In this document: positions 1 to 20,000 of the stretch, piece by piece
How positions within the stretch are numbered: the first letter of the stretch is position 1
How the letters are laid out: each line of letters starts with the position of its first letter
Made by a program: the position numbers and the translations under genes
Notes under the pieces: model-generated
Database searches by the model: none
What the model saw: the letters and a program-made list of their open reading frames with translations, nothing else
What the model was told of the DNA's origin: nothing
Assembly: GCA_008632985.1 (NCBI GenBank)
Contig: QPGO01000280.1
Location: 55,029-75,028, forward strand
Length of the DNA stretch: 20,000 nt
Direction of reading: 5' to 3'
Origin: Psammoneis japonica
Taxonomy: Eukaryota

Positions 1-1830
1 GCAGCTTCATTGAGCGCAGACGTGTCATGCTCTCTGTCCAGAATAAGATCCGCCACAATTGTGTCCCCTGATCAACCTGAGTCCACAGACAGAGGGGGAA
101 CAGTGGGAGGCGTCCCATCAGCTTGCCCAAAATGTTTCTGATTCCGTGTGCACAGTGCCGAAGCTGCTTCATCCAGAGCATCAACAGCAATCCAGTCCAT
201 GCATTCCTTTGGAGGGATCGCCGGATTCCGTGGAACTTGAACACTGTTGATCCCAGTGTCACGTTGAGCTCCGCACGACTTGATCTTCTGGAACAGCTTG
301 GTGGTCTCTGCTGCCTTGCGAAGGTTACGTAGAACAATCGCCTTTTTACGAGAAGCTGCAGCACTCTCCATTTCTAGCCAAGCAATCTTGTCGGCAATTT
401 CATTGTCTCGATGCTTGACGCTCTCAGCCGCGACCTGTCTACACTCATTCTGCGCTTGTCGTAAAGCTTGTTGACACTCTTCAAAGGCAGACGGGATCAT
501 GAATTTGCCACTCAGGCTGGTGCGGACATTTTGAATCTGAGCCGCATGATCAATGCGGGTCCGCATCATGGACAACACACGGGATAAGACACACACTCGA
601 CAACGTAAATCCGCCAACTGAGTCGACCACTCCGGTTCTCGGTGAAGGCGACACTTCTTTGCCACTGCTAAAGAAAACTGTGACAGATCCCCATCCAGCC
701 TTTCTGCCAATTCATGATCAGGAGTGATGGACTCCAAGAGTGAAGCAGACCTCTCCAAAACGTTCCGACTCTCTAGCATGGGATTGATGGTTTGTAGGCA
801 GGTGGCAACTTGAGGTTTCGAAGACGCTTGTAAGTCTCGAAAGGCTGTGCCTTCGGAAGATCAACAGTCGGGTTGCCAAAAAAAGCAATGGCATCAAAGT
901 CCACGAAGTTAGCGCGATGATCCGAAGCAATGCGGTGTCCAAATGCTTCACAGCCACCAAATCGTGCAGCGGCCAAAGCACCAGGGGCAGCTGAAACGAA
1001 ATCCAAGCGTTTTGACCCCCTTGTGCAAGTAGAAAATGCCGTGTTGCCTGTGAGAGAAAACATTGCATCGGAGAGATTGAACCATTGGGCCAAAGTGGAC
1101 AGAGAGTCGGTGTCAACAACGAAGTCCGTGTTAAAGTCCCCGAACAAAATAACCTCACGGTTGGAATCTGCAAGAAACTCTTGCAACAAACGAGACAGAT
1201 CAGTGCAAAATGCTTTGCGAGGGTCAAGGTGTTGGCGGCCTTGCTGACGCAAAAGATGAAGCTGCTGAGCGTGTGCTGTTGTTTTCCCAGGCCGTGTTTG
1301 ATTTTTGGCACAAACTCTGCAGCAGGAAATGAACATGACTTGTCTGCCATTTCTGCCATCAAATGTCTGGATAGACCAACGGCCTAACGGATCAGCCTCC
1401 TGAGAATGGCAGCGAGCAGACACCGCATTGCATGACAACAAAGCCGTGCCACCAGGTTTGTGTTGTGTAGAGAAAGGAGTTGAGCTGCAGGAAAAGGCAC
1501 CTCTGCCGTGATGGAGGGAGTTTGTCACTGCAGAACGGCAAACCGACAAAACCGAATGTTGAGCAGTGTCCAAACAAACTTCCGATGTGCCCACAATGTC
1601 AGCCTGCATCTCGTTTGTGATCTGACAGCACACAGCGAAGTCTCCTCCACGTTTGTCAAACTTGCTGCTGTTTGCATTGAAGGCGTGCAGTCTGGTGTGG
1701 TGTGAGAGCTTGGGCCCCACAGAGTCGCCAACGGAAACGTTTGTCTTCAGGCGGGAAAAATCGATGCATCATCTGGCAGAGGATTGAAACCGCCTGCCAT
1801 CCAAGAGAGTCTGCCATGTGGAAGAAGATG
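1..1830 (-). pseudogene. LINE ORF2 N-terminal part: apurinic-like endonuclease plus linker, disrupted
   Basis: ORF 773..1720 (APE motifs) joins ORF 72..779 through a frameshift at about 840-885 (the other frame reads RDLQASSKPQVATCLQTINPMLESRNV). There are in-frame TGA stops near 1770 and at 72-74, and the frame continues off the window. The true start is unresolved. Confidence 0.85.
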
Positions 1831-2089
1831 TGTCTGTTGAAACGGCACTGCTCATGGTTGGGCCACGCTCCTCCGAAGAGAAGACTGGGGCTCACAGCAC
1901 TGCCAGCAGGTTGAACCGAAGAATGAGGACACGGATGATTTGCAGATCTTGAAAGAAGGTTAAAGGTCCCATGACGGGAAGTCCGACGAAAAACATGAGA
2001 GAGAGCAGGCGGAGCAGATGCTCGGGAAAGGATGTCAGGAGGGCACCTTAATGTTTGAGGGGGTGGAGACGGCGAGATCCAACCCCTGG

Positions 2090-3899
2090 CTAAAAATCCT
2101 GCCCTTGGTCCGTTTGATCGTAGGAACATTCTGGAGTTTCCATGTGGTTGTGTTGTTTCTGAGCTGGAGGTGAAGCATGTTGAGATGTTTGGAGCATGGT
2201 GACCATCTGATTCATTTTGTCTTGCATGCTGGAAAACTGTTTGGTGTTGGCATCTTGCAACGCTGCCATGTCATTGGCATGCTGTTTTGAAAATGCACCG
2301 TGCAATGCGTCAATCTCCTTTGAGTGTTGAGCACAAAGTTCCACTGAGGCTTGATCAGTCTTGGCCTGCATTTGATTCAGCTGCTGTTGAACTTCAGCCA
2401 TCTGAGCAGACGTTAGAGACGAACTTGCAGATGACTGAGCAGCTTGAGCGCAAGAACAGGAAGGAGACTGCATGCCAGGATGTCCTTGCATCCCGCACGA
2501 ACACCCGAGAGGTTGTAAGGAGGATGGAGCGCACTCGTTCGACTGGGTAAAAACAGGTGGAGGAACGGCAGAACCTTGAGGAGTTCCGCAACCAGGCATG
2601 CCACCACGACCGGCCCCTCTGCCAGCAGACGGACGATTCAAGTGCGAAGGATCAGATTGGGGAGCTTGGGTGTCGGTTAACGGGGATGCATCCGAGAAAG
2701 TCAGTGATTCAAGGCTGCAAATGCTGGCTGACACAATGGACTTGCTGGCATCGGATTGCTCTTTGAACACTCCAGACACTTGGGGATGATCCGGAAAGGG
2801 AGGAGAAGTCCATGATTCTTCTGGAATGTTTGGAATTTCATCCACAACACATGTAGAGACAGTGGCATGGGCAGCTTTGAACTCGGCTCGTTTGACCAAA
2901 ATGTTGTAGCGTCCGGAGATGGTGTTTGTCGTGTGAATTGCCTTGACTCCTTTGATGGCTTTAATGTGATTTTCGAATTAAAACATCATGTCAGAATTCG
3001 TGTGCAGCAATGGAACCACACATGTGTCTTGATTGCGGTGGGCCTGAATTTTTGCAGCATTGTAAAAGGCAAGAGGAGACAAGCAACGAGTCTTGGCCAG
3101 GACAATGTGAGTCAGGAGCTTGTTGGAAGCACACAAAAGGGCTTTTCCTGCAGTGCGGTAATCGCCGAGCTGCACTTCAACAGCACAGGTCACTGCACGA
3201 ATCGGAGGAGCCAAATGGTCATTGTCCACATGAACAGCAGTCGGAATCAAAAAAAAAGAACTCGCCAAGATCCTTCGCAAACAATTTGGCAGCTTCTTCA
3301 ACAGGTGCATGCTTGGATGGAGTTGCAACACAGTGTGCCGGAGTGGCCGCATCAATGACAGATTCATTCCAACAGTGACGTTTCATGCCCACATTGTTCA
3401 AGTCAAGAACAGATTGAATGTGAGGGTGAGCACGAATTTCCTTAAGAGGCACCCCAGCCAGGATGCGATGACAAAGTCGATGAGTGACGGGACGTTTTTT
3501 GCCGCTACGAGTCGTTGAGACCACAAAGTGACGTTCATGCTGGAGGGAAGAAATCCACTCGGCCACGTTGACATTCGTAATTTGGTTGTTGTGGTTGTCA
3601 AAAATCCTTGCATCAGATTGGCATGTAAACAGAATCTGTTGTAGAGCTTGGAGGTGAGCCGCAGTGAGGGTCATGGGTTTGCACGACGCCTCCGGGCCAC
3701 GAATGTCAAAACGGAGAGTGATCTCCTTGAATTGTTGTTCTTTCGGCTTGGAAGAAACCTTGGTGGATGCATGATCAACGGTGACATCATCCGCCATGGT
3801 GTTGTCATTGTTCTTGGGAGGGGCATGGCTGCCGTCAGCAACGGAAGAAGACGCCATGGTGGGTCGGAAGTTCTGCGGAGAGCCTGGCATTGAAAACAT
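2090..3899 (-). pseudogene. LINE ORF1 (gag-like position), about 600 codons, with a Pro/Ser/Gly-rich segment and a C-terminal Gln-rich coiled coil; disrupted
   Basis: ORFs 3219..3899, 2978..3367 and 2090..2899 join through a probable frameshift at the A-run near 3250 and one in-frame stop at 2978-2980 (DMMF*FENHIKAIKGVKAIHTTNTISGRYNILVKRAEF). It lies directly upstream of the APE ORF on the same strand. Confidence 0.7.
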
Positions 3900-3931
3900 G
3901 CAGGTAAAATCAATGCTGACATTCGCAGAAT

Positions 3932-5602
3932 TGTGCGATCATGCAAGATGGAAAGCCAGCAGTGCATTGGTTGTGGAAGCTCAGTGCAGTGCAGCACAAT
4001 TGCTCAACCATTGAGAAGAAACTTCTCGTGGTGGCAATGTGTTTCAAAGAATTTCATTCCATGTTGCTTGGAGCGGATTGCACTGTTTTCACTGATCATA
4101 AAAATCTCACCTTTTGCACGCTCAACTCTCAACGAGTGCTCAGGTGGAGAGTCTTTTTGGAGGATTTTACCCCAACCTTTGAGCATGTTGATGGCAAGAA
4201 CAACCTGTCAGCAGATTGTTTTTTGTGATTGCCACGCATGGATCCACCAATGGAAGGGAAGTGTGCTCCAAACAAAGGCAAACTGACAGATTTCAAAGCA
4301 ATCGACACTGCCACGCTGCCTCATGAAGAGGAGCTCAACAACATGGATCGCGCATCTTGTTTTGCTTGCTGTCGGGAAGAGCCATCTCAGTTTCATTCCT
4401 CCTTTGTTGATGATCCGGAGCTGTGTGAATCATTCTTGAACTGCCCCTCACTTGATGAAATGCAAAACCCAACAACTGTGCAACAGATTCAGGAGCATCA
4501 ATTTGTTGATGTGGAGCTGAACAACATGAGACAACAATGCCCGGAACAATTCGTGATTGAACATGTGAACCAGCATCCTGTCATTTGCTGTTGTGCTCAT
4601 CCCAATGCTCTTGCAACAGAGTGGAAAATTTGTGTCCCCACTGTTTTGTTACCTGATGTGATCCACTGGCATCACAGGACATTGGGGCATGCAGGAATGC
4701 ACCGCATGCACTCAACTGTTGGCGCGCATTTTTGTCATCCTGTCCTTTGTTGGATTTGTGAGGAATTTCGTTGTGCTGAGTGTCAACACTTAGAAACTTT
4801 GGGTCCGGGACATGGAGAACTGCCTGAATGCAAAGCGTCCTTGCTGCCATGGAATGAAGTTGCAGTCGACCTCATTGGTCCCTGGAAGATTGACACTCAG
4901 GGCCAGGAGATTGAACTCAACACTTTGACTTGCATTGACGCTGTTTTGAATGTTGCTGAGCTTGTTTGCATCAACAACAAAACCTCCAAGCATGTTCCCC
5001 AGCAATTTGAAAATTGTTGGTTGTCTCATCATCCTCTTCCCAACCGTTGTGTTCATGACAATGGCGGAGAATTCATTGGAGAACACTTTCAACTGTTGTT
5101 GCAGCAGGCGGGAGTGGAGGATGTGCCCGCCACGTCCAGGAGCCCACAAGCCAATGCGGTGTGTGAACATGTGCATCAAACTGCTGGCAATGTCTTGCAT
5201 GCTTTGCCTCACCTTTGCCCTCCACAGAACATTGGGCAAGCCAACCAACTGGTGGATGATGCTTTGGCAATGACAATGCACGCAATGCGGTGTGCAGTGT
5301 CCCGAGCTCTCAAGGTCTCACCTGGTGCTGTGGTGCTTCATTGTGACATGACACAAGATCTGCCAGTGCTGGCAGATCTCGCCGCCATTCAAGAACATCG
5401 ACAAGCAATTGTTGGTGCAAATCTCCACAGAGCAAATGCCAAATGACGCTCCTGCGATTTTCAAGTTGGCAGCCAAGTGCTTGTCAAGACTGTTGGTCCC
5501 ACCAAGCTTGCACCTTGAGTGCATGGTCCTTGTCCCATTGTTCAATGGCTTCATGTGGTGGAGCAACTTGACGTTTGGCATGTCGCACCACATCGAGTTT
5601 GA
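3932..5602 (+). pseudogene. Ty3/Gypsy pol remnant: RNase H C-terminal part, integrase (zinc-binding region, DDE core, GPY/F region)
   Basis: RNase H motifs [40 protein letters not shown]. Integrase motifs HRTLGHAG, PWNEVAVDLIGPW, HDNGGEF, PQANAVCE, and GPCPIVQ (GPY/F). The order RH-INT is Gypsy-type. In-frame TGA stops at 4226, 5444 and about 5516 fall at expected Arg positions. Confidence 0.93.
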
Positions 5603-5711
5603 GGCCAAGGGTTTTTTCCCAACTCTTGGTCTTCCCTTGTTTCCTCTCATAAAATTTGAATTAGAATTTTAAAATTTTTGAGTCCCAAATGACTCTCATG
5701 ATTCGAGTCAT

Positions 5712-5723
5712 GGAAGGGAAGAG
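5712..5723 (+). other. Polypurine tract of the Gypsy element
   Basis: GGAAGGGAAGAG lies about 110 nt after the end of pol and is followed immediately by TG (tgcaatg), the canonical LTR start. Confidence 0.75.
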
Positions 5724-6072
5724 TGCAATGTCACGCACCCCATTTTTCTGATGTGTGGTGTCAATGATCCTGCCAGACACAAGAGGAGCCATTGTGATGG
5801 GCTTCGCTGAAAGCAACCTCATCACCTTGGTCTCTCTCTCACAACTTTGTTGTCACTCAAGTCTTTGTCTTGTTGGACCTTGCAGATCGAAGAGTGGAAA
5901 TGCATGTTTTTGAGAACGGCAATTTTGTTTGTGCAGTCATTTGGGGATCAAACCTCACCCAATCGGACACAATCGCCAATTCAAAAATTGAAACACCAAA
6001 GGTGGTGCTTGCTGAAATGGGCACATTGAAACACCATGTGTGGCGCTTGTTTCCGATTGGCGTTGAGCGAAG
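5724..6072 (+). repeat. Probable 3' LTR of the Gypsy element (right boundary not determined)
   Basis: Starts with TG directly after the PPT. There is no second LTR in the window to fix the end, so the end is placed at the MITE insertion. Confidence 0.45.
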
Positions 6073-6075
6073 TCA

Positions 6076-6921
6076 GGCTTGGTCTGCAGGTGAGCCGAGC
6101 TGGATCGGATCACTGGATCGACTCCTTCACAACCCAATGAAGTGTCAGTCCATCGAGTCAAAAAGTCGATCCGTGGCCTTCGTGGAACTGATCCGCCATC
6201 TCGGATCAGACGGTCTTCGAAGCAAAATGTTTTGCTCCGAAGACCGTCCGATCCGAAAATCCAGATTGGACGTCGGATCCAATTTGGAGGGTTCCATGCC
6301 ACCATCACGACAATGGCACAACATCACATGATTGTGACACAGAATGGCATGAGATTCAGCCATGAGGGCAAGGAACATTCTTGGCATTGTGGTCGAAGTC
6401 TTTCCATGCTCAAAATGAAGATGAGAAAGGTGGTGTGGCAACAGAGCAGCTTGTCAAACTGACAATGCGATGCAGATTTGTTGGAGAAACATTGAACAAG
6501 CAAAGTGACAAGCACCTGTCATGTGACTCGAAGTTTCAATGCGAAAACATTGCACTGGTTTCCCAGCTGCAAAAGTGACAGCTTTTTCTTCCTCAGCATT
6601 GCTGTGGACATTGAGTGACAACGATTCTCAATGATGCGGTCACATGTGCATGCAAAGCTGCGGCAACAGCATGGCTCTGTTGTCATGTCATTGCGTTGTG
6701 ACAAGATGTGAAGCATCATGGCCACACTTCTTGTTGTTCGCTGTTGTCAGTGCTTTGTCATTCTTGGGAGTTTGGAATCTTGAAACTTGTGTCGTTTTGC
6801 GACTCATCAAAATGTCAAATCCGATCCGCGATCCGATCCGGTTCCACCTGTCGACTAACGGAATTCTGACGCGATCCGATCCGTTGATCCGATCCGGCGC
6901 GGTTCACCTGCAGACCGAGCC
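6076..6921. mobile_element. Non-autonomous TIR DNA transposon (MITE), PIF/Harbinger-like, 846 bp
   Basis: 45-bp terminal inverted repeats at 6076-6120 (GGCTTGGTCTGCAGGTGAGCCGAGCTGGATCGGATCA...) and 6877-6921 match at 39/45. A 3-bp direct repeat TCA flanks both ends (6073-6075, 6922-6924). There are subterminal GATCC/GGATC repeats and no credible ORF. Confidence 0.82.
6201..6256. repeat. Near-perfect 56-bp palindrome inside the MITE
   Basis: Arms 6201-6227 and 6230-6256 match at 25/27 with a central TG. Confidence 0.9.
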
Positions 6922-7102
6922 TCATTCTTCTGAAGTTACCGTACTGAATGACGAAGAGGAAAGTCAACATTTTCCAAATAACAACAGTTTTATCCAAGAA
7001 ATGTGTGATTGAATATAAAATAATAATGAAATAAGAATAATACTTGAGTTGAATAGAGAAAATACAAGGACAAAAAATTTTGTCCTGCGGGTACAGAGAA
7101 AG

Positions 7103-7552
7103 TTAACAGTCCGGAAATGGACTCGAGTTTGGAGTAAATCTGGGAGCGTTAACACATGTGGCTGGGGTCGAAGATGGTCCGTAGCTTGCTGAACTACTGC
7201 AATCGAAGGTTCCACCTGTGGTAGTTGTGCAGCAAAGGGTGTTATCAGTGCCATTGCATCTGCCCACAGTACCATCAATGATGTCCTGACACACAGGGAG
7301 GTTTTCAATAACATTATCTGATATGACACAATATGTAGTGGGTGTGTCTGGGAGGGGACCATTGCCATCAGTGCCAAGGCATGAGTTGCCACAACTGGTG
7401 GAGCACGTTGTAGTGGAGACTGCTCCAAACTGATTCGAAACGCAATTGCTGCTAGCGGGGCAACATTTCGATTGCTGGCTCGAAGTGCCAGTGAGTGCCA
7501 AGTAGGCTAGATCGCAAAAATCATCTCTTGCACTTGTGCAGCCAGGATCAAC
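7103..7552 (-). other. Unique C-terminal cysteine-rich domain (about 150 aa, 16 Cys) of the giant protein
   Basis: Translation from [13 protein letters not shown] to PNSSPFPDC* has 16 Cys including two CC pairs and no hydrophobic TM or GPI tail. Confidence 0.85.
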
Positions 7553-10500
7553 TTGAGAAACGAGAGTAGTCAACGGGTCCGTGACAGGGTCCGTCTCGTC
7601 GCTATCGGCCGTGCCCACGTTCACGATCACGCCAGCTTCGACATCAGCCTGGGTGACCGTGTATGCCGTAGTCAGCACGCAGGGGTCACCTACTGCAACG
7701 GTAGCGCAAGTAGTGCTGCCACCCGTCAAGTCGTCGCTCACCACCACATTCGTCAGGGTGACGTCTCCATTGTTCGTCGCCGTAATGTTGTAAGTTAGAG
7801 TGTCGCCGAGACTCACGTCTTCCGAAAGGTCCTCGTCGGCATTACTCAGCAGTGTCTTGACTACAACCAACTGCGGGTTTTGCGCAACGGGAGTAGTCAA
7901 CGGGTCCGTGACAGGGTCCGTCTCGTCGCTATCGGCCGTGCCCACGTTCAGGATCACGCCAGCTTCGACATCAGCCGGGGTCACCGTGTATGTCGTAGTT
8001 AGCACGCAGGGGTCACCTACTGCAACGGTAGCGCAAGTAGTGCTGCCACCGGTCAAGTCGTCGCTCACCACCACATTCGTCAGGGTGACGTCTCCATTGT
8101 TCGTCGCCGTAATGGTGTAAGTTAGAGTGTCGCCGAGACTCACGTCGCCCGAGCCGTCCTGGTCGGCATTACTCAGCAGTGTCTTGACTACAACCAACTG
8201 CGGGTTTTGCGCAACGGGAGTAGTCAACGGGTCCGTGACAGGGTCCGTCTCGTCGCTATCGGCCGTGCCCACGTTCACGATCACGCCAGCTTCGACATCA
8301 GCCGGGGCGACCGTGTATGTCGTAGTTAGCACGCAGGGGTCACCTACTGCAACGGTAGCGCAAGTAGTGCTGCCACCCGTCAAGTCGTCGCTCACCACCA
8401 CATTCGTCAGGGTGACGTCTCCATTGTTCGTCGCCGTAATGGTGTAAGTTAGAGTGTCGCCGAGACTCACGTCGCCCGAGCCGTCCTGGTCGGCATTACT
8501 CAGCAGAGTCTTGACTACAACCAACTGCGGGTTTTGCGTAACGGGAGTAGTCAACGGGTCCGTGACAGGGTCCGTCTCGTCGCTATCGGCCGCGCCCACA
8601 TTCACGATCACGCCAGCTTCGACATCAGCCGGGGTGACCGTGTATGTCGTTGTTAGCACGCAGGGGTCACCTACTCCAACGGTAGCGCAGGTAGTGCTGC
8701 CACCCGTCAAGTCGTCGCTCACCACCACATTCGTCAAGGTGACGTCTCCATTGTTCGTCGCCGTAATGGTGTAAGTTAGAGTGTCGCCGAGACTCACGTC
8801 GCCCGAGCCGTCCTGGTCGGCATTACTCAGCAGAGTCTTGACTACAACCAACTGCGGGTTTTGCGTAACGGGAGTAGTCAACGGGTCCGTGACAGGGTCC
8901 GTCTCGTCGCTATCGGCCGTGCCCACGTTCACGATCACGCCAGCTTCGACATCCGCCGGGGTGACCGTGTATGTCGTCGTTAGCACGCAGGGGTCACCTA
9001 CTGCAACGGTAGCGCAGGTAGTGCTGCCACCGGTCAAGTCGTCGCTCACCACCACATTCGTCAAGGTGACGTCTCCATTGTTCGTCGCCGTAATGGTGTA
9101 AGTTAGAGTGTCGCCGAGACTCACGTCGCCCGAGCCGTCCTGGTCGGCATTACTCAGCAGAGTCTTGACTACAACCAACTGCGGGTTTTGCGTAACGGGA
9201 GTAGTCAACGGGTCCGTGACAGGGTCCGTCTCGTCGCTATCGGCCGTGCCCACGTTCACGATCACGCCAGCTTCGACATCCGCCGGGGTGACCGTGTATG
9301 TCGTCGTTAGCACGCAGGGGTCACCTACTGCAACGGTAGCGCAGGTAGTGCTGCCACCGGTCAAGTCGTCGCTCACCACCACATTCGTCAAGGTGACGTC
9401 TCCATTGTTCGTCGCCGTAATGGTGTAAGTTAGAGTGTCGCCGAGACTCACGTCGCCCGAGCCGTCCTGGTCGGCATTACTCAGCAGAGTCTTGACTACA
9501 ACCAACTGCGGGTTTTGCGTAACGGGAGTAGTCAACGGGTCCGTGACAGGGTCCGTCTCGTCGCTATCGGCCGCGCCCACATTCACGATCACGCCAGCTT
9601 CGACATCCGCCGGGGTGACCGTGTATGTCGTCGTTAGCACGCAGGGGTCACCTACTGCAACGGTAGCGCAGGTAGTGCTGCCACCGGTCAAGTCGTCGCT
9701 CACCACCACATTCGTCAAGGTGACGTCTCCATTGTTCGTCGCCGTAATGGTGTAAGTTAGAGTGTCGCCGAGACTCACGTCGCCCGAGCCGTCCTGGTCG
9801 GCATTACTCAGCAGAGTCTTGACTACAACCAACTGCGGGTTTTGCGTAACGGGAGTAGTCAACGGGTCCGTGACAGGGTCCGTCTCGTCGCTATCGGCCG
9901 CGCCCACGTTCACGATCACGCCAGCTTCGACATCCGCCGGGGTGACCGTGTATGTCGTCGTTAGCACGCAGGGGTCACCTACTGCAACGGTAGCGCAGGT
10001 AGTGCTGCCACCGGTCAAGTCGTCGCTCACCACCACATTCGTCAAGGTGACGTCTCCATTGTTCGTCGCCGTAATGGTGTAAGTTAGAGTGTCGCCGAGA
10101 CTCACGTCGCCCGAGCCGTCCTGGTCGGCATTACTCAGCAGAGTCTTGACTACAACCAACTGCGGGTTTTGCGTAACGGGAGTAGTCAACGGGTCCGTGA
10201 CAGGGTCCGTCTCGTCGCTATCGGCCGTGCCCACGTTCACGATCACGCCAGCTTCGACATCCGCCGGGGTGACCGTGTATGTCGTCGTTAGCACGCAGGG
10301 GTCACCTACTGCAACGGTAGCGCAGGTAGTGCTGCCACCGGTCAAGTCGTCGCTCACCACCACATTCGTCAAGGTGACGTCTCCATTGTTCGTCGCCGTA
10401 ATGGTGTAAGTTAGAGTGTCGCCGAGACTCACGTCGCCCGAGCCGTCCTGGTCGGCATTACTCAGCAGAGTCTTGACTACAACCAACTGCGGGTTTTGCG

Positions 10501-13500
10501 TAACGGGAGTAGTCAACGGGTCCGTGACAGGGTCCGTCTCGTCGCTATCGGCCGCGCCCACGTTCACGATCACGCCAGCTTCGACATCCGCCGGGGTGAC
10601 CGTGTATGTCGTCGTTAGCACGCAGGGGTCACCTACTGCAACGGTAGCGCAGGTAGTGCTGCCACCGGTCAAGTCGTCGCTCACCACCACATTCGTCAAG
10701 GTGACGTCTCCATTGTTCGTCGCCGTAATGGTGTAAGTTAGAGTGTCGCCGAGACTCACGTCGCCCGAGCCGTCCTGGTCGGCATTACTCAGCAGAGTCT
10801 TGACTACAACCAACTGCGGGTTTTGCGTAACGGGAGTAGTCAACGGGTCCGTGACAGGGTCCGTCTCGTCGCTATCGGCCGCGCCCACATTCACGATCAC
10901 GCCAGCTTCGACATCCGCCGGGGTGACCGTGTATGTCGTCGTTAGCACGCAGGGGTCACCTACTGCAACGGTAGCGCAGGTAGTGCTGCCACCGGTCAAG
11001 TCGTCGCTCACCACCACATTCGTCAAGGTGACGTCTCCATTGTTCGTCGCCGTAATGGTGTAAGTTAGAGTGTCGCCGAGACTCACGTCGCCCGAGCCGT
11101 CCTGGTCGGCATTACTCAGCAGAGTCTTGACTACAACCAACTGCGGGTTTTGCGTAACGGGAGTAGTCAACGGGTCCGTGACAGGGTCCGTCTCGTCGCT
11201 ATCGGCCGCGCCCACATTCACGATCACGCCAGCTTCGACATCCGCCGGGGTGACCGTGTATGTCGTCGTTAGCACGCAGGGGTCACCTACTGCAACGGTA
11301 GCGCAGGTAGTGCTGCCACCGGTCAAGTCGTCGCTCACCACCACATTCGTCAAGGTGACGTCTCCATTGTTCGTCGCCGTAATGGTGTAAGTTAGAGTGT
11401 CGCCGAGACTCACGTCGCCCGAGCCGTCCTGGTCGGCATTACTCAGCAGAGTCTTGACTACAACCAACTGCGGGTTTTGCGTAACGGGAGTAGTCAACGG
11501 GTCCGTGACAGGGTCCGTCTCGTCGCTATCGGCCGCGCCCACATTCACGATCACGCCAGCTTCGACATCCGCCGGGGTGACCGTGTATGTCGTCGTTAGC
11601 ACGCAGGGGTCACCTACTGCAACGGTAGCGCAGGTAGTGCTGCCACCGGTCAAGTCGTCGCTCACCACCACATTCGTCAAGGTGACGTCTCCATTGTTCG
11701 TCGCCGTAATGGTGTAAGTTAGAGTGTCGCCGAGACTCACGTCGCCCGAGCCGTCCTGGTCGGCATTACTCAGCAGAGTCTTGACTACAACCAACTGCGG
11801 GTTTTGCGTAACGGGAGTAGTCAACGGGTCCGTGACAGGGTCCGTCTCGTCGCTATCGGCCGCGCCCACATTCACGATCACGCCAGCTTCGACATCCGCC
11901 GGGGTGACCGTGTATGTCGTCGTTAGCACGCAGGGGTCACCTACTGCAACGGTAGCGCAGGTAGTGCTGCCACCGGTCAAGTCGTCGCTCACCACCACAT
12001 TCGTCAAGGTGACGTCTCCATTGTTCGTCGCCGTAATGGTGTAAGTTAGAGTGTCGCCGAGACTCACGTCGCCCGAGCCGTCCTGGTCGGCATTACTCAG
12101 CAGAGTCTTGACTACAACCAACTGCGGGTTTTGCGTAACGGGAGTAGTCAACGGGTCCGTGACAGGGTCCGTCTCGTCGCTATCGGCCGCGCCCACATTC
12201 ACGATCACGCCAGCTTCGACATCCGCCGGGGTGACCGTGTATGTCGTCGTTAGCACGCAGGGGTCACCTACTGCAACGGTAGCGCAGGTAGTGCTGCCAC
12301 CGGTCAAGTCGTCGCTCACCACCACATTCGTCAAGGTGACGTCTCCATTGTTCGTCGCCGTAATGGTGTAAGTTAGAGTGTCGCCGAGACTCACGTCGCC
12401 CGAGCCGTCCTGGTCGGCATTACTCAGCAGAGTCTTGACTACAACCAACTGCGGGTTTTGCGTAACGGGAGTAGTCAACGGGTCCGTGACAGGGTCCGTC
12501 TCGTCGCTATCGGCCGCGCCCACATTCACGATCACGCCAGCTTCGACATCAGCCGGGGTGACCGTGTATGTCGTTGTTAGCACGCAGGGGTCACCTACTC
12601 CAACGGTAGCGCAAGTAGTGCTGCCACCCGTCAAGTCGTCGCTCACCACCACATTCGTCAAGGTGACGTCTCCATTGTTCGTCGCCGTAATGGTGTAAGT
12701 TAGAGTGTCGCCGAGACTCACGTCGCCCGAGCCGTCCTGGTCGGCATTACTCAGCAGAGTCTTGACTACAACCAACTGCGGGTTTTGCGTAACGGGAGTA
12801 GTCAACGGGTCCGTGACAGGGTCCGTCTCGTCGCTATCGGCCGCGCCCACATTCACGATCACGCCAGCTTCGACATCCGCCGGGGTGACCGTGTATGTCG
12901 TCGTTAGCACGCAGGGGTCACCTACTGCAACGGTAGCGCAGGTAGTGCTGCCACCGGTCAAGTCGTCGCTCACCACCACATTCGTCAAGGTGACGTCTCC
13001 ATTGTTCGTCGCCGTAATGGTGTAAGTTAGAGTGTCGCCGAGACTCACGTCGCCCGAGCCGTCCTGGTCGGCATTACTCAGCAGAGTCTTGACTACAACC
13101 AACTGCGGGTTTTGCGTAACGGGAGTAGTCAACGGGTCCGTGACAGGGTCCGTCTCGTCGCTATCGGCCGCGCCCACATTCACGATCACGCCAGCTTCGA
13201 CATCCGCCGGGGTGACCGTGTATGTCGTCGTTAGCACGCAGGGGTCACCTACTGCAACGGTAGCGCAGGTAGTGCTGCCACCGGTCAAGTCGTCGCTCAC
13301 CACCACATTCGTCAAGGTGACGTCTCCATTGTTCGTCGCCGTAATGGTGTAAGTTAGAGTGTCGCCGAGACTCACGTCGCCCGAGCCGTCCTGGTCGGCA
13401 TTACTCAGCAGAGTCTTGACTACAACCAACTGCGGGTTTTGCGTAACGGGGAGTAGTCAACGGGTCCGTGACAGGGTCCGTCTCGTCGCTATCGGCCGCG

Positions 13501-16500
13501 CCCACATTCACGATCACGCCAGCTTCGACATCCGCCGGGGTGACCGTGTATGTCGTCGTTAGCACGCAGGGGTCACCTACTGCAACGGTAGCGCAGGTAG
13601 TGCTGCCACCGGTCAAGTCGTCGCTCACCACCACATTCGTCAAGGTGACGTCTCCATTGTTCGTCGCCGTAATGGTGTAAGTTAGAGTGTCGCCGAGACT
13701 CACGTCGCCCGAGCCGTCCTGGTCGGCATTACTCAGCAGAGTCTTGACTACAACCAACTGCGGGTTTTGCGTAACGGGAGTAGTCAACGGGTCCGTGACA
13801 GGGTCCGTCTCGTCGCTATCGGCCGCGCCCACATTCACGATCACGCCAGCTTCGACATCCGCCGGGGTGACCGTGTATGTCGTCGTTAGCACGCAGGGGT
13901 CACCTACTGCAACGGTAGCGCAGGTAGTGCTGCCACCGGTCAAGTCGTCGCTCACCACCACATTCGTCAAGGTGACGTCTCCATTGTTCGTCGCCGTAAT
14001 GGTGTAAGTTAGAGTGTCGCCGAGACTCACGTCGCCCGAGCCGTCCTGGTCGGCATTACTCAGCAGAGTCTTGACTACAACCAACTGCGGGTTTTGCGTA
14101 ACGGGAGTAGTCAACGGGTCCGTGACAGGGTCCGTCTCGTCGCTATCGGCCGCGCCCACATTCACGATCACGCCAGCTTCGACATCCGCCGGGGTGACCG
14201 TGTATGTCGTCGTTAGCACGCAGGGGTCACCTACTGCAACGGTAGCGCAGGTAGTGCTGCCACCGGTCAAGTCGTCGCTCACCACCACATTCGTCAAGGT
14301 GACGTCTCCATTGTTCGTCGCCGTAATGGTGTAAGTTAGAGTGTCGCCGAGACTCACGTCGCCCGAGCCGTCCTGGTCGGCATTACTCAGCAGAGTCTTG
14401 ACTACAACCAACTGCGGGTTTTGCGTAACGGGAGTAGTCAACGGGTCCGTGACAGGGTCCGTCTCGTCGCTATCGGCCGCGCCCACATTCACGATCACGC
14501 CAGCTTCGACATCCGCCGGGGTGACCGTGTATGTCGTCGTTAGCACGCAGGGGTCACCTACTGCAACGGTAGCGCAGGTAGTGCTGCCACCGGTCAAGTC
14601 GTCGCTCACCACCACATTCGTCAAGGTGACGTCTCCATTGTTCGTCGCCGTAATGGTGTAAGTTAGAGTGTCGCCGAGACTCACGTCGCCCGAGCCGTCC
14701 TGGTCGGCATTACTCAGCAGAGTCTTGACTACAACCAACTGCGGGTTTTGCGTAACGGGAGTAGTCAACGGGTCCGTGACAGGGTCCGTCTCGTCGCTAT
14801 CGGCCGCGCCCACATTCACGATCACGCCAGCTTCGACATCCGCCGGGGTGACCGTGTATGTCGTCGTTAGCACGCAGGGGTCACCTACTGCAACGGTAGC
14901 GCAGGTAGTGCTGCCACCGGTCAAGTCGTCGCTCACCACCACATTCGTCAAGGTGACGTCTCCATTGTTCGTCGCCGTAATGGTGTAAGTTAGAGTGTCG
15001 CCGAGACTCACGTCGCCCGAGCCGTCCTGGTCGGCATTACTCAGCAGAGTCTTGACTACAACCAACTGCGGGTTTTGCGTAACGGGAGTAGTCAACGGGT
15101 CCGTGACAGGGTCCGTCTCGTCGCTATCGGCCGCGCCCACATTCACGATCACGCCAGCTTCGACATCCGCCGGGGTGACCGTGTATGTCGTCGTTAGCAC
15201 GCAGGGTCACCTACTGCAACGGTAGCGCAGGTAGTGCTGCCACCGGTCAAGTCGTCGCTCACCACCACATTCGTCAAGGTGACGTCTCCATTGTTCGTCG
15301 CCGTAATGGTGTAAGTTAGAGTGTCGCCGAGACTCACGTCGCCCGAGCCGTCCTGGTCGGCATTACTCAGCAGAGTCTTGACTACAACCAACTGCGGGTT
15401 TTGCGTAACGGGAGTAGTCAACGGGTCCGTGACAGGGTCCGTCTCGTCGCTATCGGCCGCGCCCACATTCACGATCACGCCAGCTTCGACATCCGCCGGG
15501 GTGACCGTGTATGTCGTCGTTAGCACGCAGGGGTCACCTACTGCAACGGTAGCGCAGGTAGTGCTGCCACCGGTCAAGTCGTCGCTCACCACCACATTCG
15601 TCAAGGTGACGTCTCCATTGTTCGTCGCCGTAATGGTGTAAGTTAGAGTGTCGCCGAGACTCACGTCGCCCGAGCCGTCCTGGTCGGCATTACTCAGCAG
15701 AGTCTTGACTACAACCAACTGCGGGTTTTGCGTAACGGGAGTAGTCAACGGGTCCGTGACAGGGTCCGTCTCGTCGCTATCGGCCGCGCCCACATTCACG
15801 ATCACGCCAGCTTCGACATCCGCCGGGGTGACCGTGTATGTCGTCGTTAGCACGCAGGGGTCACCTACTGCAACGGTAGCGCAGGTAGTGCTGCCACCGG
15901 TCAAGTCGTCGCTCACCACCACATTCGTCAAGGTGACGTCTCCATTGTTCGTCGCCGTAATGGTGTAAGTTAGAGTGTCGCCGAGACTCACGTCGCCCGA
16001 GCCGTCCTGGTCGGCATTACTCAGCAGAGTCTTGACTACAACCAACTGCGGGTTTTGCGTAACGGGAGTAGTCAACGGGTCCGTGACAGGGTCCGTCTCG
16101 TCGCTATCGGCCGCGCCCACATTCACGATCACGCCAGCTTCGACATCCGCCGGGGTGACCGTGTATGTCGTCGTTAGCACGCAGGGGTCACCTACTGCAA
16201 CGGTAGCGCAGGTAGTGCTGCCACCGGTCAAGTCGTCGCTCACCACCACATTCGTCAAGGTGACGTCTCCATTGTTCGTCGCCGTAATGGTGTAAGTTAG
16301 AGTGTCGCCGAGACTCACGTCGCCCGAGCCGTCCTGGTCGGCATTACTCAGCAGAGTCTTGACTACAACCAACTGCGGGTTTTGCGTAACGGGAGTAGTC
16401 AACGGGTCCGTGACAGGGTCCGTCTCGTCGCTATCGGCCGCGCCCACATTCACGATCACGCCAGCTTCGACATCCGCCGGGGTGACCGTGTATGTCGTCG

Positions 16501-19500
16501 TTAGCACGCAGGGGTCACCTACTGCAACGGTAGCGCAGGTAGTGCTGCCACCGGTCAAGTCGTCGCTCACCACCACATTCGTCAAGGTGACGTCTCCATT
16601 GTTCGTCGCCGTAATGGTGTAAGTTAGAGTGTCGCCGAGACTCACGTCGCCCGAGCCGTCCTGGTCGGCATTACTCAGCAGAGTCTTGACTACAACCAAC
16701 TGCGGGTTTTGCGTAACGGGAGTAGTCAACGGGTCCGTGACAGGGTCCGTCTCGTCGCTATCGGCCGCGCCCACATTCACGATCACGCCAGCTTCGACAT
16801 CCGCCGGGGTGACCGTGTATGTCGTCGTTAGCACGCAGGGGTCACCTACTGCAACGGTAGCGCAGGTAGTGCTGCCACCGGTCAAGTCGTCGCTCACCAC
16901 CACATTCGTCAAGGTGACGTCTCCATTGTTCGTCGCCGTAATGGTGTAAGTTAGAGTGTCGCCGAGACTCACGTCGCCCGAGCCGTCCTGGTCGGCATTA
17001 CTCAGCAGAGTCTTGACTACAACCAACTGCGGGTTTTGCGTAACGGGAGTAGTCAACGGGTCCGTGACAGGGTCCGTCTCGTCGCTATCGGCCGCGCCCA
17101 CATTCACGATCACGCCAGCTTCGACATCCGCCGGGGTGACCGTGTATGTCGTCGTTAGCACGCAGGGGTCACCTACTGCAACGGTAGCGCAGGTAGTGCT
17201 GCCACCGGTCAAGTCGTCGCTCACCACCACATTCGTCAAGGTGACGTCTCCATTGTTCGTCGCCGTAATGGTGTAAGTTAGAGTGTCGCCGAGACTCACG
17301 TCGCCCGAGCCGTCCTGGTCGGCATTACTCAGCAGAGTCTTGACTACAACCAACTGCGGGTTTTGCGTAACGGGAGTAGTCAACGGGTCCGTGACAGGGT
17401 CCGTCTCGTCGCTATCGGCCGCGCCCACATTCACGATCACGCCAGCTTCGACATCCGCCGGGGTGACCGTGTATGTCGTCGTTAGCACGCAGGGGTCACC
17501 TACTCCAACGGTAGCGCAGTAGTGCTGCCACCGGTCAAGTCGTCGCTCACCACCACATTCGTCAAGGTGACGTCTCCATTGTTCGTCGCCGTAATGGTGT
17601 AAGTTAGAGTGTCGCCGAGACTCACGTCGCCCGAGCCGTCCTGGTCGGCATTACTCAGCAGAGTCTTGACTACAACCAACTGCGGGTTTTGCGTAACGGG
17701 AGTAGTCAACGGGTCCGTGACAGGGTCCGTCTCGTCGCTATCGGCCGCGCCCACATTCACGATCACGCCAGCTTCGACATCCGCCGGGGTGACCGTGTAT
17801 GTCGTCGTTAGCACGCAGGGGTCACCTACTGCAACGGTAGCGCAGGTAGTGCTGCCACCGGTCAAGTCGTCGCTCACCACCACATTCGTCAAGGTGACGT
17901 CTCCATTGTTCGTCGCCGTAATGGTGTAAGTTAGAGTGTCGCCGAGACTCACGTCGCCCGAGCCGTCCTGGTCGGCATTACTCAGCAGAGTCTTGACTAC
18001 AACCAACTGCGGGTTTTGCGTAACGGGAGTAGTCAACGGGTCCGTGACAGGGTCCGTCTCGTCGCTATCGGCCGCGCCCACATTCACGATCACGCCAGCT
18101 TCGACATCCGCCGGGGTGACCGTGTATGTCGTCGTTAGCACGCAGGGGTCACCTACTGCAACGTAGCGCAGGTAGTGCTGCCACCGGTCAAGTCGTCGCT
18201 CACCACCACATTCGTCAAGGTGACGTCTCCATTGTTCGTCGCCGTAATGGTGTAAGTTAGAGTGTCGCCGAGACTCACGTCGCCCGAGCCGTCCTGGTCG
18301 GCATTACTCAGCAGAGTCTTGACTACAACCAACTGCGGGTTTTGCGTAACGGGAGTAGTCAACGGGTCCGTGACAGGGTCCGTCTCGTCGCTATCGGCCG
18401 CGCCCACATTCACGATCACGCCAGCTTCGACATCCGCCGGGGTGACCGTGTATGTCGTCGTTAGCACGCAGGGGTCACCTTACTGCAACGGTAGCGCAGG
18501 TAGTGCTGCCACCGGTCAAGTCGTCGCTCACCACCACATTCGTCAAGGTGACGTCTCCATTGTTCGTCGCCGTAATGGTGTAAGTTAGAGTGTCGCCGAG
18601 ACTCACGTCGCCCGAGCCGTCCTGGTCGGCATTACTCAGCAGAGTCTTGACTACAACCAACTGCGGGTTTTGCGTAACGGGAGTAGTCAACGGGTCCGTG
18701 ACAGGGTCCGTCTCGTCGCTATCGGCCGCGCCCACATTCACGATCACGCCAGCTTCGACATCCGCCGGGGTGACCGTGTATGTCGTCGTTAGCACGCAGG
18801 GGTCACCTACTGCAACGTAGCGCAGGTAGTGCTGCCACCGNNNNNNNNNNNNNNNNNNNNNNNNNNNNNNNNNNNNNNNNNNNNNNNNNNNNNNNNNNNN
18901 NNNNNNNNNNNNNNNNNNNNNNNNNNNNNNNNNNNNNNNNNNNNNNNNNNNNNNNNNNNNNNNNNNNNNNNNNNNNNNNNNNNNNNNNNNNNNNNNNNNN
19001 NNNNNNNNNNNNNNNNNNNNNNNNNNNNNNNNNNNNNNNNNNNNNNNNNNNNNNNNNNNNNNNTTCACGATCACGCCAGCTTCGACATCCGCCGGGGTGA
19101 CCGTGTATGTCGTCGTTAGCACGCAGGGGTCACCTACTGCAACGGTAGCGCAGGTAGTGCTGCCACCGGTCAAGTCGTCGCTCACCACCACATTCGTCAA
19201 GGTGACGTCTCCATTGTTCGTCGCCGTAATGGTGTAAGTTAGAGTGTCGCCGAGACTCACGTCGCCCGAGCCGTCCTGGTCGGCATTACTCAGCAGAGTC
19301 TTGAACACAACCAACTGCGGGTTTTGCGTAACGGGAGTAGTCAACGGGTCCGTGACAGGGTCCGTCTCGTCGCTATCGGCCGCGCCCACATTCACGATCA
19401 CGCCAGCTTCGACATCGCCGGGGTGACCGTGTTGTCGTTCGTTAGCACGCAGGGGTCACCTACTGCAACGGTAGCGCAGGTAGTTGCTGCCACCGGTCAA

Positions 19501-20000
19501 GTCGTCGCTCACCACCACATTCGTCAAGGTGACGTCTCCATTGTTCGTCGCCGTAATGGTGTAAGTTAGAGTGTCGCCGAGACTCACGTCGCCGAGCCGT
19601 CCTGGTCGGCATTACTCAGCAGAGTCTTGACTACAACCAACTGCGGGTTTTGCGTAACGGGAGTAGTCAACGGGTCCGTGACAGGGTCCGTCTCGTCGCT
19701 ATCGGCCGCGCCACATTCACGATCACGCCAGCTTCGACATCCGCGGGGTGACCGTGTATGTCGTCGTTAGCACGCAGGGGTCACCTACTGCAACGTAGCG
19801 CAGGTAGTGCTGCCACCGGTCAAGTCGTCGCTCACCACCACATTCGTCAAGGTGACGTCTCCATTGTTCGTCGCCGTAATGGTGTAAGTTAGAGTGTCGC
19901 CGAGACTCACGTCGCCCGAGCCGTCCTGGTCGGCATTACTCAGCAGAGTCTTGACTACAACCAACTGCGGGTTTTGCGTAACGGGAGTAGTCAACGGCGT
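7103..20000 (-). CDS. Giant repetitive, acidic Thr/Val/Asp-rich extracellular (adhesin-like) protein of more than 4200 aa, 5' end outside the window; tandem DUF11/DUF7507-like Ig-fold repeats plus a Cys-rich C-terminus
   Basis: Uninterrupted 2108-codon ORF 7103..13429, continued upstream by the same repeat in ORFs 13401..15200, 15194..17488 and others separated by single-base indels. The repeat motif [27 protein letters not shown] matches the 'conserved repeat domain' pattern. Stop codon at 7103-7105. Confidence 0.85.
7553..20000 (-). repeat. Tandem coding array, 327-bp unit, about 38 copies in the window, nearly identical
   Basis: Exact 327-nt periodicity (for example, antisense shadow ORFs start at 7800, 8127, 8454, 8781 and so on). 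The array continues past the window end. Confidence 0.98.
18841..19063. other. Assembly gap (223 N) inside the tandem array
   Basis: Run of N. The flanks are in nearly correct repeat phase (222 nt expected), and indel density rises around the gap. Confidence 0.99.

Follow-up and report, generated by a model that had tools for sequence, protein, structure and literature searches.

Near-complete transition of TpA to TpG or CpA in clustered dead transposons of a diatom-type nuclear genome

All directed hypermutation of selfish DNA known to us, as in RIP and APOBEC, proceeds by cytosine deamination and drives the sequence towards AT. Fungal RIP (Neurospora and other fungi) marks multi-copy transposon DNA, in copy after copy, with a single kind of transition that occurs on either strand at a single dinucleotide, and the resulting dinucleotide signature contrasts sharply with neighbouring genes; CpA/TpG is converted to TpA (C:G>T:A), AT content rises, and stop codons are created. 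APOBEC3-type hypermutation of retroelement cDNA is host-inflicted and context-dependent and leaves dead but recognisable copies, with C>U changes on the minus-strand cDNA only, which are read as strand-specific G>A. ADARs, known to us only from animals, act on dsRNA. Their hyperediting produces A>G changes, preferably next to a 5' U/T, and the clusters can be so dense that an element is crippled; TAT is a poor ADAR context. The CpG decay of methylated transposons, by deamination of 5-methylcytosine, also yields TpG/CpA and is unable to remove TpA. A full-text word search of open-access papers and bioRxiv retrieved no paper on the hypermutation of TpA to TpG/CpA in diatoms or any other organism, and in a term search of Maumus et al. 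2009 (PMC2806351), neither hypermutation nor dinucleotides nor deamination came up.

The window, which is the whole 20,000-nucleotide stretch of DNA analysed here, belongs to a diatom-type nuclear genome, and its positions 1-6922 are a cluster or nest of dead transposons (a LINE, a Gypsy element, and a MITE-like element). A degenerate LINE-type non-LTR retrotransposon occupies 1..3938 on the minus strand and extends past the left end of the window. On the same strand, its APE endonuclease (773-1768; Pfam PF03372, 31.4 bits against a cutoff of 24.5) is accompanied by a part of the LINE beyond the endonuclease at 72-860, in a frame different from that of the endonuclease, and by upstream ORFs at 2090-2977 and 3219-3938. 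The endonuclease had 2206 relatives at E<=0.001 in an exhaustive HMMER search, unlike a word-indexed protein search, which gave no match. In a scan of viral contigs, no relative was found. Segment 72-860 showed 40% identity to residues 323-575 of P0122, and the endonuclease and the next 253 residues were collinear with this 1934-aa relative. By sequence, the element is a non-LTR (LINE) retrotransposon with an N-terminal apurinic-type (APE) endonuclease joined to a long ORF2, and its reverse transcriptase lies beyond the window.

A 5'-truncated Ty3/Gypsy pol follows on the plus strand (3920..5650), comprising RNase H (3920-4228; Pfam RT_RNaseH, 49.7 bits, exceeding the cutoff), an integrase ORF of 405 aa (4229-5446; rve, 20 bits, below the cutoff of 32.6), and a C-terminal tail to approximately 5650. 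Diatom Gypsy homologues, including named diatom proteins, matched it down to E = 3.7e-138. The order of the domains, RNase H first and then an integrase that has both the HHCC zinc finger and the DDE core, is that of a Ty3/Gypsy pol, and the invariant residues H149, H154, C182, C185, D214, D277, and E313 were all kept. The pol reads in a single frame over 1.7 kb with no frameshift and is broken by three in-frame stops on the plus strand. Two of them are TGA codons in consensus Arg columns, at 4226..4228 and 5444..5446, which form the 5' bound and the close of the 405-aa ORF, respectively, and the third, at 5516-5518, is of the same kind; all three probably arose by CGA>TGA.

Non-coding repeated DNA at 5651..6074 is probably the 3' end of the Gypsy element; eight contigs of other copies part from the window sequence at 5884. 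The MITE-like element (6075..6922) contains no ORF and is bounded by 46-nt terminal inverted repeats (6075-6120 and 6877-6922, 87% complementary), from which alone its class is read as probably that of a DNA transposon; no clear target-site duplication was seen on inspection by eye. The flank from this last transposon end to the stop codon of the adjacent gene (6923..7102) is single-copy and unaffected by the changes described below. The gene itself (7103..19997, minus strand) is a DUF7507/DUF11 repeat gene with 38 copies of a 327-bp unit and a GC content of 59%; its tandem array has frame breaks, which may be assembly errors. All the affected parts were multi-copy in run X1, with summed depths of 200-1900 compared with approximately 30 for single contigs, and runs X2 and X3 gave next to no coverage of the stretch.

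Positions 1-6922 contained 48 TpA dinucleotides, while 300 mononucleotide shuffles gave a mean of 445 and a minimum of 392. The observed-to-expected ratio (O/E) of TpA was 0.00-0.24 in each of the 14 bins of 500 bp that make up 1-7000, and the bins covering 7001-18500 had values of 0.67-1.09. It was 0.17 in the LINE, 0.03 in the Gypsy part (4 TpA in 1731 bp), 0.06 in the repeat at 5651..6074 (2 TpA in 424 bp), and 0.02 in the MITE-like element (1 TpA in 848 bp), and the non-coding parts were depleted as much as the coding parts. The initial annotation had placed the effect in 3932..5602 and the LINE endonuclease, both of which were affected; the actual extent was 6.9 kb and three transposon types, including a non-coding element. 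The right edge of the mutated block was sharp: normal TpA density resumed 15 bp past the last inverted repeat, with the first TpA at 6937 and 14 TpA in the 180 bp of the flank (O/E of 0.69). Mutation of each element prior to its insertion, or selection guarding the 3' flank of the gene, would give such an edge as well. These figures describe one window of the host genome.

When O/E values were strand-symmetrised, only TA (0.11) and CG (0.63) were low and only TG/CA (1.57) was high, with AA/TT at 1.21; this is the opposite of the C:G>T:A change with a rise in TpA that marks RIP. The rise in TpG/CpA matched the loss of TpA and CpG almost exactly: the Gypsy part had lost 48.3 TA and 37.0 CG per kb and gained 84.1 TG+CA, and the MITE-like element had lost 57.0 (TA+CG) and gained 53.3 (TG+CA) per kb. 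The six frames contained 333 TGA triplets compared with 66 TAA+TAG, and the open frames are long because TAA and TAG were destroyed.

Two separate point-mutation processes rewrote the block, both ending in TpG/CpA. One is the CpG>TpG/CpA change, the ordinary decay expected of methylated transposons, as these elements presumably were; CpG was low (O/E of 0.40 in the Gypsy part, 0.68 in the LINE, and 0.89 in the MITE-like element), TpG/CpA was gained, and Arg CGN codons had become TGN/CAN. The other is the loss of TpA, which is independent of the first. The two are uncoupled because the MITE-like element had almost no TpA left at a CpG O/E of 0.89, and because P0022, a protein of a second Gypsy family described below, kept 39 of 42 Arg and only 2 of 19 Tyr.

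The integrase ORF at 4229..5446 had been described as lacking Tyr and rich in Cys and His, and its 405 residues indeed comprised no Tyr, 6.2% Cys, and 7.2% His, compared with 3.0%, 2.4%, and 3.7%, respectively, in 33 aligned homologues; by arithmetic, the chance of a Tyr-free run of 405 residues at 3% Tyr is approximately 4e-6. The codons TAT and TAC were absent, and 25 TGY and 29 CAY codons were present. Against the homologue consensus, the Gypsy pol differed in 76 of 279 conserved columns, and the changes were attributed to TpA>TpG/CpA (18), CpG>TpG/CpA (21), other transitions (12), transversions (14), and multi-base changes (11). None of the eight consensus-Tyr columns was kept (six His, one Cys, and one Phe in the window), and most of the sites named in the initial annotation were borne out, with consensus Tyr read as His at AVHW, WHH, GHG, and SHHP and as Cys at NCSTIEK. 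All 15 changes at consensus Arg columns were of the CpG type. At conserved columns, CGY>TGY/CAY had added three Cys and six His compared with seven Cys or His from Tyr, so that the excess of these residues, formerly assigned to Tyr, came partly from Tyr through TpA and in larger share from Arg through CpG decay, which had been overlooked.

The LINE endonuclease likewise kept none of its six consensus-Tyr columns (three Cys, two His, and one Phe), and all eight Arg columns were kept. Among the LINE sites proposed earlier, RLHAFN, ISCCRVC, and STCTRGS coincided with consensus Tyr, and TAHAQQ fell in a column where the consensus is Ser at 63%. As the columns in which the window reads His or Cys are Tyr in the homologues, the changes are derived, and the closest homologues did not share the Cys and His, an outcome that had been set in advance as grounds for rejecting the claim. 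The evidence therefore supports the claim that Tyr>Cys/His is derived and damaging, and a product of TpA>TpG/CpA and not of codon bias or an altered code. Other copies of the repeats in the window carry TA: in run X1, among 40 listed differences (of 1869 differing places), 33 were transitions, of which 13 had TA in the other copy and TG/CA in the window, and none the reverse.

Outcomes on both strands were observed within one element, with nine TA>CA and nine TA>TG in the Gypsy pol and three of each in the LINE endonuclease. Elements on opposite strands were both affected, as was the non-coding inverted-repeat element. Along the Gypsy pol, CA was the outcome at nine of the 12 sites up to 5030 and TG at all six thereafter; by a count of runs (8 compared with approximately 10 expected), this clustering was not significant. 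Because TpA is self-complementary, A>G at TpA, as in the earlier description, cannot be told apart from T>C at TpA. The 48 surviving TpA were followed by A (27), G (15), C (6), and T (0), which makes TAT the most fully removed triplet, and TAT/ATA were clearly the best substrates. The survivors of the whole block were not strand-symmetric (18 GTA and 6 TAC), and those of the LINE on the plus strand numbered 18 GTA compared with 4 TAC, an asymmetry not expected under a strictly symmetric rule. A clean motif for an extended context rule was not derivable from 48 sites.

The adjacent repeat gene served as an internal control. Its TpA O/E was 0.94, and the 2118-codon ORF at 7103-13456 used 39 Tyr codons (38 TAC and 1 TAT), in line with the earlier judgement that an altered genetic code is unlikely. 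TpA was unaffected across the 38 near-identical copies of the 327-bp array; duplication by itself would therefore not be the trigger, and the analogy with RIP is the weaker for it.

Among 78 related metagenome Gypsy loci, TpA O/E was 0.45-1.08 and none fell below 0.45; one of them, the low-Tyr ORF L002, had normal TpA. As no locus out of 78 was in the depleted state, this state is uncommon. The loss of Tyr did recur in a second Gypsy family of metagenome proteins, in which, relative to the intact P0272, 2 of 19 Tyr were kept in P0022, 3 of 18 in P0287, and 0 of 13 in P0117. Against two less-mutated relatives, P0022 had 18 TpA-compatible changes, no CpG-type change, and two others; this family was read as protein, and the TpA-compatible class (e.g., Ile>Val) assumes a preceding T. 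The copies of this family differed at the same site (Cys in one and His in another, or Met and Thr), which indicates that the hits were independent among copies.

The block resembles the products of RIP in carrying, in multi-copy transposon DNA, a single type of transition at one dinucleotide of either strand, in its sharp contrast with a neighbouring gene, and in the independent outcomes in sister copies. It differs in direction, as TpA became TpG/CpA (A:T>G:C), GC went up, and no stop can arise from the change. The host is also of diatom type and not a fungus, and while the affected parts were multi-copy and the single-copy flank was spared, the 38-copy array was spared as well. It shares with ADAR hyperediting a dense A>G change next to a 5' T and with APOBEC3 the dead but recognisable copies. 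Changes confined to the sense strand and to elements that pass through RNA, which ADAR would leave, were both absent from the window: the two strands were hit equally, a DNA-transposon-like element was hit, AA was unaffected, and TAT was the best substrate. Compared with APOBEC3, the change was A:T>G:C and strand-symmetric, and a non-retro element was also affected.

We consider a fast, transposon-directed, TpA-specific A:T>G:C hypermutation at the DNA level to be the best reading, with a probability of approximately 0.55. The near-exhaustive change of TpA to TpG or CpA is an A:T>G:C transition limited to the TpA step, and the process would act on double-stranded genomic DNA after transposon insertion; in the simplest chemistry, an enzyme would deaminate the adenine of 5'-TA-3', on one strand or the other, to hypoxanthine. 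Codons for Tyr (TAT/TAC), the Ile codon ATA, and any TA spanning a codon border would be destroyed by such a process, which, being incapable of turning a sense codon into a stop, would leave long open frames encoding crippled proteins. Action on DNA, targeting, and an enzymatic nature are what we infer: the presence of both strand outcomes in one element and the hits on opposite-strand and non-coding elements argue for DNA rather than RNA, and the normal TpA 15 bp beyond the last inverted repeat, with the adjacent gene untouched, points to targeting. We know of no natural DNA adenine deaminase of such specificity. A lineage-appropriate candidate class may be the stramenopile-restricted CDD/CDA-like deaminases fused to SAM and Tudor domains, which, in Iyer et al. 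2011 (PMC3239186), are predicted from domain architecture only and are linked by the authors to RNAi-type complexes and a possible action on selfish elements; nothing in the window ties this family to the TpA signature.

A slow chromatin-linked bias, in which error-prone repair synthesis in silenced, methylated transposon DNA gradually turned TpA into TpG/CpA, seems rather unlikely to us; a possible route would be patch repair after 5-methylcytosine deamination by a polymerase mispairing at T or A. The block is wholly transposon DNA, CpG decayed within it (O/E of 0.40-0.68 in the Gypsy part and the LINE), and TpA depletion varied by element (0.17 compared with 0.02-0.03), as different ages might give. 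The loss of TpA did not track that of CpG, however, since the MITE-like element combined the lower TpA (0.02) with the higher CpG (0.89) and the LINE the reverse (0.17 and 0.68), and P0022 lost 17 of 19 Tyr while keeping nearly all its Arg, with only two non-TpA changes against 18. The lack of any frameshift in 1.7 kb of the Gypsy pol also speaks against slow decay. Polymerase eta favours A:T mutation at WA motifs, and such a signature was ruled out, as AA/TT (1.21) was not depleted; GC-biased gene conversion was ruled out by normal AT, AA, and other W-containing steps. Changes of A>G next to a 5' T might instead recall ADAR-like A-to-I hyperediting of RNA (with its 5'-U preference), fixed by reverse transcription, with copies mutated before insertion. 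Two of the three elements are retroelements, and edges at the element ends would then be automatic. This is nonetheless improbable, because editing of the template RNA cannot give the sense-strand T>C that equalled A>G in the Gypsy part (9:9) and the LINE (3:3), the most completely depleted element was the non-coding one of DNA-transposon type, and TAT left none of the 48 survivors.

We find it highly improbable that the pattern is a sequencing or assembly artefact, with a modified base at TpA misread as G or C or with a polishing error. The window does contain an N gap, the frame breaks of the tandem array may be errors of assembly, and the assembly may itself derive from the only run that contains the stretch. 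Against this, the contigs of run X1 contained 65% of the 31-mers of the window, a 672-bp contig matched 5087-5758 with one difference, each site was a clean TG or CA with no mixture, and Tyr>Cys/His also appeared in proteins of another Gypsy family from unrelated metagenome assemblies. An evolved property of the elements, such as selection against TA, biased codon use, or a variant genetic code, could be imagined from the persistence of long open frames and the intact HHCC and DDE residues, and we give it next to no credence: conserved Tyr was gone at every tested column, the pol was broken by three in-frame stops, non-coding parts were just as depleted, other copies carried TA, and the neighbouring gene used TAC/TAT 39 times.

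Beyond the favoured TpA-specific hypermutation of transposon DNA, we tentatively suggest, at somewhat less than even odds, that some diatoms have a genome defence whose chemistry mirrors that of RIP. An enzyme would be guided, perhaps by small RNAs, to the chromatin of transposons, would there deaminate adenine, or convert the T:A pair in some other way, specifically at TpA in genomic DNA until none is left, and would kill elements through the loss of Tyr and ATA-encoded Ile while their frames stay open. If true, this would rank as the first natural system of A:T>G:C hypermutation in DNA, the counterpart in nature of the engineered adenine base editors. The enzyme behind it, editing the A:T pairs of DNA in a context of two bases, would be of clear interest to base editing. 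As hypermutated copies keep long ORFs, gene callers report them as proteins, for example as Tyr-free integrases in metagenome protein sets, and repeat libraries and transposon age estimates built on neutral decay will be in error for these copies. With TpA O/E, or the Tyr content of pol ORFs, as a simple index, the question would become testable across all diatom and stramenopile genomes. A TpA-erasing, GC-driving process would, if true, represent a new chemistry of genome defence in a major group of marine primary producers.

Transposon DNA fills positions 1–6922 of the window and comprises four parts. A minus-strand non-LTR retrotransposon (LINE) extends up to 3938 and contains an APE endonuclease (773–1768, minus strand; PF03372, 31.4 bits), a segment after the endonuclease (72–860, minus strand) collinear with a 1934-aa relative (P0122), and upstream ORFs. 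The frame shifts between the ORFs at 773–1768 and 72–860, while P0122 is continuous across the same stretch; the LINE has therefore acquired one or more indels, in contrast to the adjacent Ty3/Gypsy pol. This 5'-truncated pol (3920–5650, plus strand) encodes RNase H and integrase in one reading frame, with diatom proteins (Fistulifera, Cylindrotheca, Ditylum, and Cyclotella) among its homologues. The 5' ends of the LINE and the truncated pol adjoin, no more than about 20 bp apart (3910–3940), which suggests that one element was inserted into the other; the remaining Gypsy half would then lie beyond the window. A repeated non-coding spacer of about 420 bp is followed by a MITE-like element (6075–6922) with 46-nt terminal inverted repeats (87% complementary). 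This element has an internal near-perfect palindrome (6201–6256) and arms rich in GGATC/GATCC, its two arms differ mostly as TG versus CG, and no clear target-site duplication was found for it. The whole of 1–7100 is multi-copy in the sole public sequencing run with this stretch (880 contigs matched at 80% identity or more).

A DUF7507/DUF11 repeat gene (59% GC) occupies the minus strand from 7103 to the window end, with 38 copies of a 327-bp unit (38.1 units at 7559–19,997 by TRF, 95% matches, no indels). The ORF breaks near 13,401–13,456, 15,194–15,200, 17,488–17,500, 18,141–18,153, and 18,467–18,475 in this near-perfect array may be assembly errors, and an N gap (18,841–19,063) lies inside the tandem-array region.

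The integrase ORF (4229–5446, 405 aa), described in the initial annotation as Tyr-free and rich in Cys and His, indeed contained no Tyr, 6.2% Cys, and 7.2% His, compared with 3.0%, 2.4%, and 3.7% in homologues, respectively. This composition arises because TpA is nearly absent, and the absence reaches beyond the ORF to the whole block. The observed/expected frequency (O/E) of TpA was 0.00–0.24 in all 14 bins of 1–7000, and 48 TpA were counted in 1–6922, compared with a mean of 445 and a minimum of 392 in 300 shuffles. By part, TpA O/E was 0.17 (LINE), 0.03 (Gypsy), 0.06 (spacer), and 0.02 (MITE-like element). The TpA conversion ends where the transposon block ends: the 180-bp flank (6923–7102) held 14 TpA, the first of them 15 bp past the inverted repeat, and the neighboring gene had a TpA O/E of 0.94. 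With the strands pooled, only TA and CG were low and only TG/CA were high; AA/TT, AT, and the rest were normal. The 48 surviving TpA were followed by A (27), G (15), or C (6) and never by T, and ATA was also rare among them (6), TAT/ATA being clearly the most completely removed triplets. The survivors showed an unexplained strand asymmetry, with GTA outnumbering TAC by 18 to 6 over 1–6922 and by 18 to 4 in the LINE zone.

Among 78 related metagenome Gypsy loci, TpA O/E ranged from 0.45 to 1.08, and none resembled the window. The two lowest loci were L040 (0.45) and L026 (0.47); L026, with a CpG O/E of 0.54, TG of 1.71, and a normal Tyr content (2.8%), may reflect mild decay or another base composition. 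Relative to the baseline of these loci, the gain of TG and CA in the Gypsy part was 84.1 per kb, against losses of 48.3 TA and 37.0 CG. The corresponding losses and gains per kb were 57.0 and 53.3 for the MITE-like element and 59.0 and 44.4 for the LINE, for which the baseline is less apt. The vanished TA and CG are now present as TG and CA.

The direction of change was determined by aligning 60 of 120 listed homologues to the Gypsy read-through frame. Of the 279 columns in which the consensus reached 60% or more, 203 were unchanged and 76 changed, with inferred causes of TpA type (TA>CA, 9; TA>TG, 9), CpG type (CG>TG, 13; CG>CA, 8), other transitions (12), transversions (14), and multi-base changes (11). 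All eight consensus-Tyr columns were changed (His 6, Cys 1, Phe 1). For the LINE endonuclease, compared with the 100 best of 150 listed relatives at a consensus of at least 50%, 79 of 106 columns were kept; where the consensus was Tyr (six columns), the window has Cys in three cases, His in two, and Phe in one, and all eight Arg were retained. When the window was compared with other copies from the same run (at least 80% identity), transitions (A>G 339, G>A 404, C>T 347, T>C 321) exceeded each transversion (36–74). Among the 40 listed of 1869 differing places, 33 were transitions; in 13 of these, the other copies had TA and the window TG or CA, and the reverse was found in none. The homologue consensus and the TA in other copies thus identify the window copy as the derived one, in agreement with the earlier proposal that its Cys and His replaced conserved Tyr. 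As the neighboring gene uses TAC (38) and TAT (1) normally among 2118 codons, the genetic code is not at issue.

Tyr is not the only source of the Cys/His excess, to which it had been attributed: seven Cys/His at conserved Gypsy columns derive from Tyr, and nine derive from Arg (CGY>TGY/CAY). CpG decay is therefore a second process beside TpA loss. All 15 changes of consensus Arg in Gypsy were of CpG type (Cys 3, His 6, Trp 2, Gln 1, stop 3), the three in-frame stops among them (4226, 5444, and 5516) being CGA>TGA in every case. CpG decay truly operates in the block, yet the two processes are uncoupled: CpG O/E is 0.89 in the MITE-like element (TpA 0.02) and 0.68 in the LINE (TpA 0.17), whose endonuclease kept 8/8 Arg and 0/6 Tyr.

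Tyr content was below 1% in four of the 218 homologues retrieved (P0063, P0117, P0022, and P0287; median of 3.3%). These four represent one other Gypsy subfamily from metagenome protein sets and are about 48–50% identical to the window integrase. Against P0272, a relative that is intact and has 29 Tyr in 754 aa, P0022 kept 2/19 Tyr (Cys 10, His 6) and 39/42 Arg, P0287 kept 3/18 Tyr (His 9, Cys 6), and P0117 kept 0/13 (His 6, Cys 5, Arg 2). When three Tyr-poor copies were pooled over the columns in which P0040 and P0035, both less mutated, have the same residue, retention was 0/12 for Tyr, 22/43 for Ile (Met 9, Val 8, Thr 3), and 80% or more for each of the remaining residues. In such columns, TpA-compatible, CpG-type, and other changes numbered 18, 0, and 2 in P0022, with more background in P0063 (15, 8, and 8) and P0117 (15, 5, and 20); as the subfamily is known as protein alone, Ile>Val, Asn>Asp, and the like are TpA-compatible only if T precedes. 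Different copies showed Cys versus His, or Met versus Thr, at the same column, and thus they were struck independently from a TA-bearing ancestor. Judging from these protein sequences, the Tyr-poor subfamily is a second, independent case of TpA-type loss. A partial case, P0003, comes from another source (Tyr: 3 kept, His 4, Cys 3; 25/27 Arg kept). Tyr>Arg (TAY>CGY) occurred several times in the hypermutated family (P0035, P0117, and P0022), and the window CG at 6661–6662 faces TA in other copies; both TpA positions are therefore convertible, yielding a new CpG, which is not expected under a single-hit rule with strict TpA dependence.

The change is a near-complete A:T>G:C transition confined to TpA. 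Both strand outcomes occur within single elements, the affected DNA includes retroelements in either orientation as well as a non-coding inverted-repeat element, and conversion is independent of CpG decay and possible with almost no other change (P0022). The initial interpretation is supported with these corrections, and we consider a previously undescribed, TpA-specific, transposon-directed A:T>G:C DNA hypermutation to be the best explanation (probability of roughly 0.55), the description being far firmer than the mechanism. Such hypermutation, in the sense of fungal repeat-induced point mutation (RIP), would act on genomic double-stranded DNA after insertion and far faster than the background. 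As TpA is self-complementary, the attacked base may be either A (5' T neighbor) or T (3' A neighbor). The simplest transition-only chemistry would be deamination of adenine to hypoxanthine, which pairs with C; alternatively, a modified thymine could mispair with G.

A slow chromatin-linked mutation bias is a weaker candidate and would have to operate uncoupled from CpG decay; the P0022 pattern, the intact Gypsy frame, and the normal AA/TT also argue against it. RNA hyperediting fixed through retrotransposition is improbable: the A>G change in a 5'-T context resembles ADAR editing, but single-strand and RNA-only features are absent, the strand symmetry contradicts it, and the inverted-repeat element is affected too. 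An artefact is unlikely, as 65% of the window 31-mers are common to contigs of the run, a 672-bp contig matches the window with one difference, and assemblies unrelated to this one show the pattern again. The loss of conserved Tyr, the in-frame stops, the equal depletion of non-coding parts, and the codon use of the neighbor rule out selection, codon bias, and a variant code.

Transposon-directed hypermutation of this kind resembles RIP in its copy-wise, context-specific transitions in transposon DNA. However, RIP acts at CpA, where it converts C:G>T:A and raises TpA, the reverse of the window. The untouched adjacent 38-copy tandem array, the lesser depletion of the LINE than of neighboring elements, and the lack of strand symmetry in surviving TpA also speak against a strict analogy. 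Deaminases that are restricted to stramenopiles and carry fused SAM and Tudor domains were described by Iyer et al. (2011, PMC3239186), who also proposed anti-selfish-element roles for algal and fungal deaminases; the stramenopile SAM/Tudor deaminases are a lead to the candidate enzyme, nothing more. No description of a TpA-erasing signature was found by full-text searches of bioRxiv and the open-access literature or by searching for relevant terms in the principal paper on diatom retrotransposons (PMC2806351).

By the genetic code, TA>TG/CA never makes a stop from a sense codon, and TAA and TAG are themselves destroyed (TGA 333 versus TAA+TAG 66 in six frames). Because no stops are created and TAA/TAG are erased, a dead integrase retains a 405-aa ORF, and copies of this kind appear among predicted metagenome proteins because their frames stay open.
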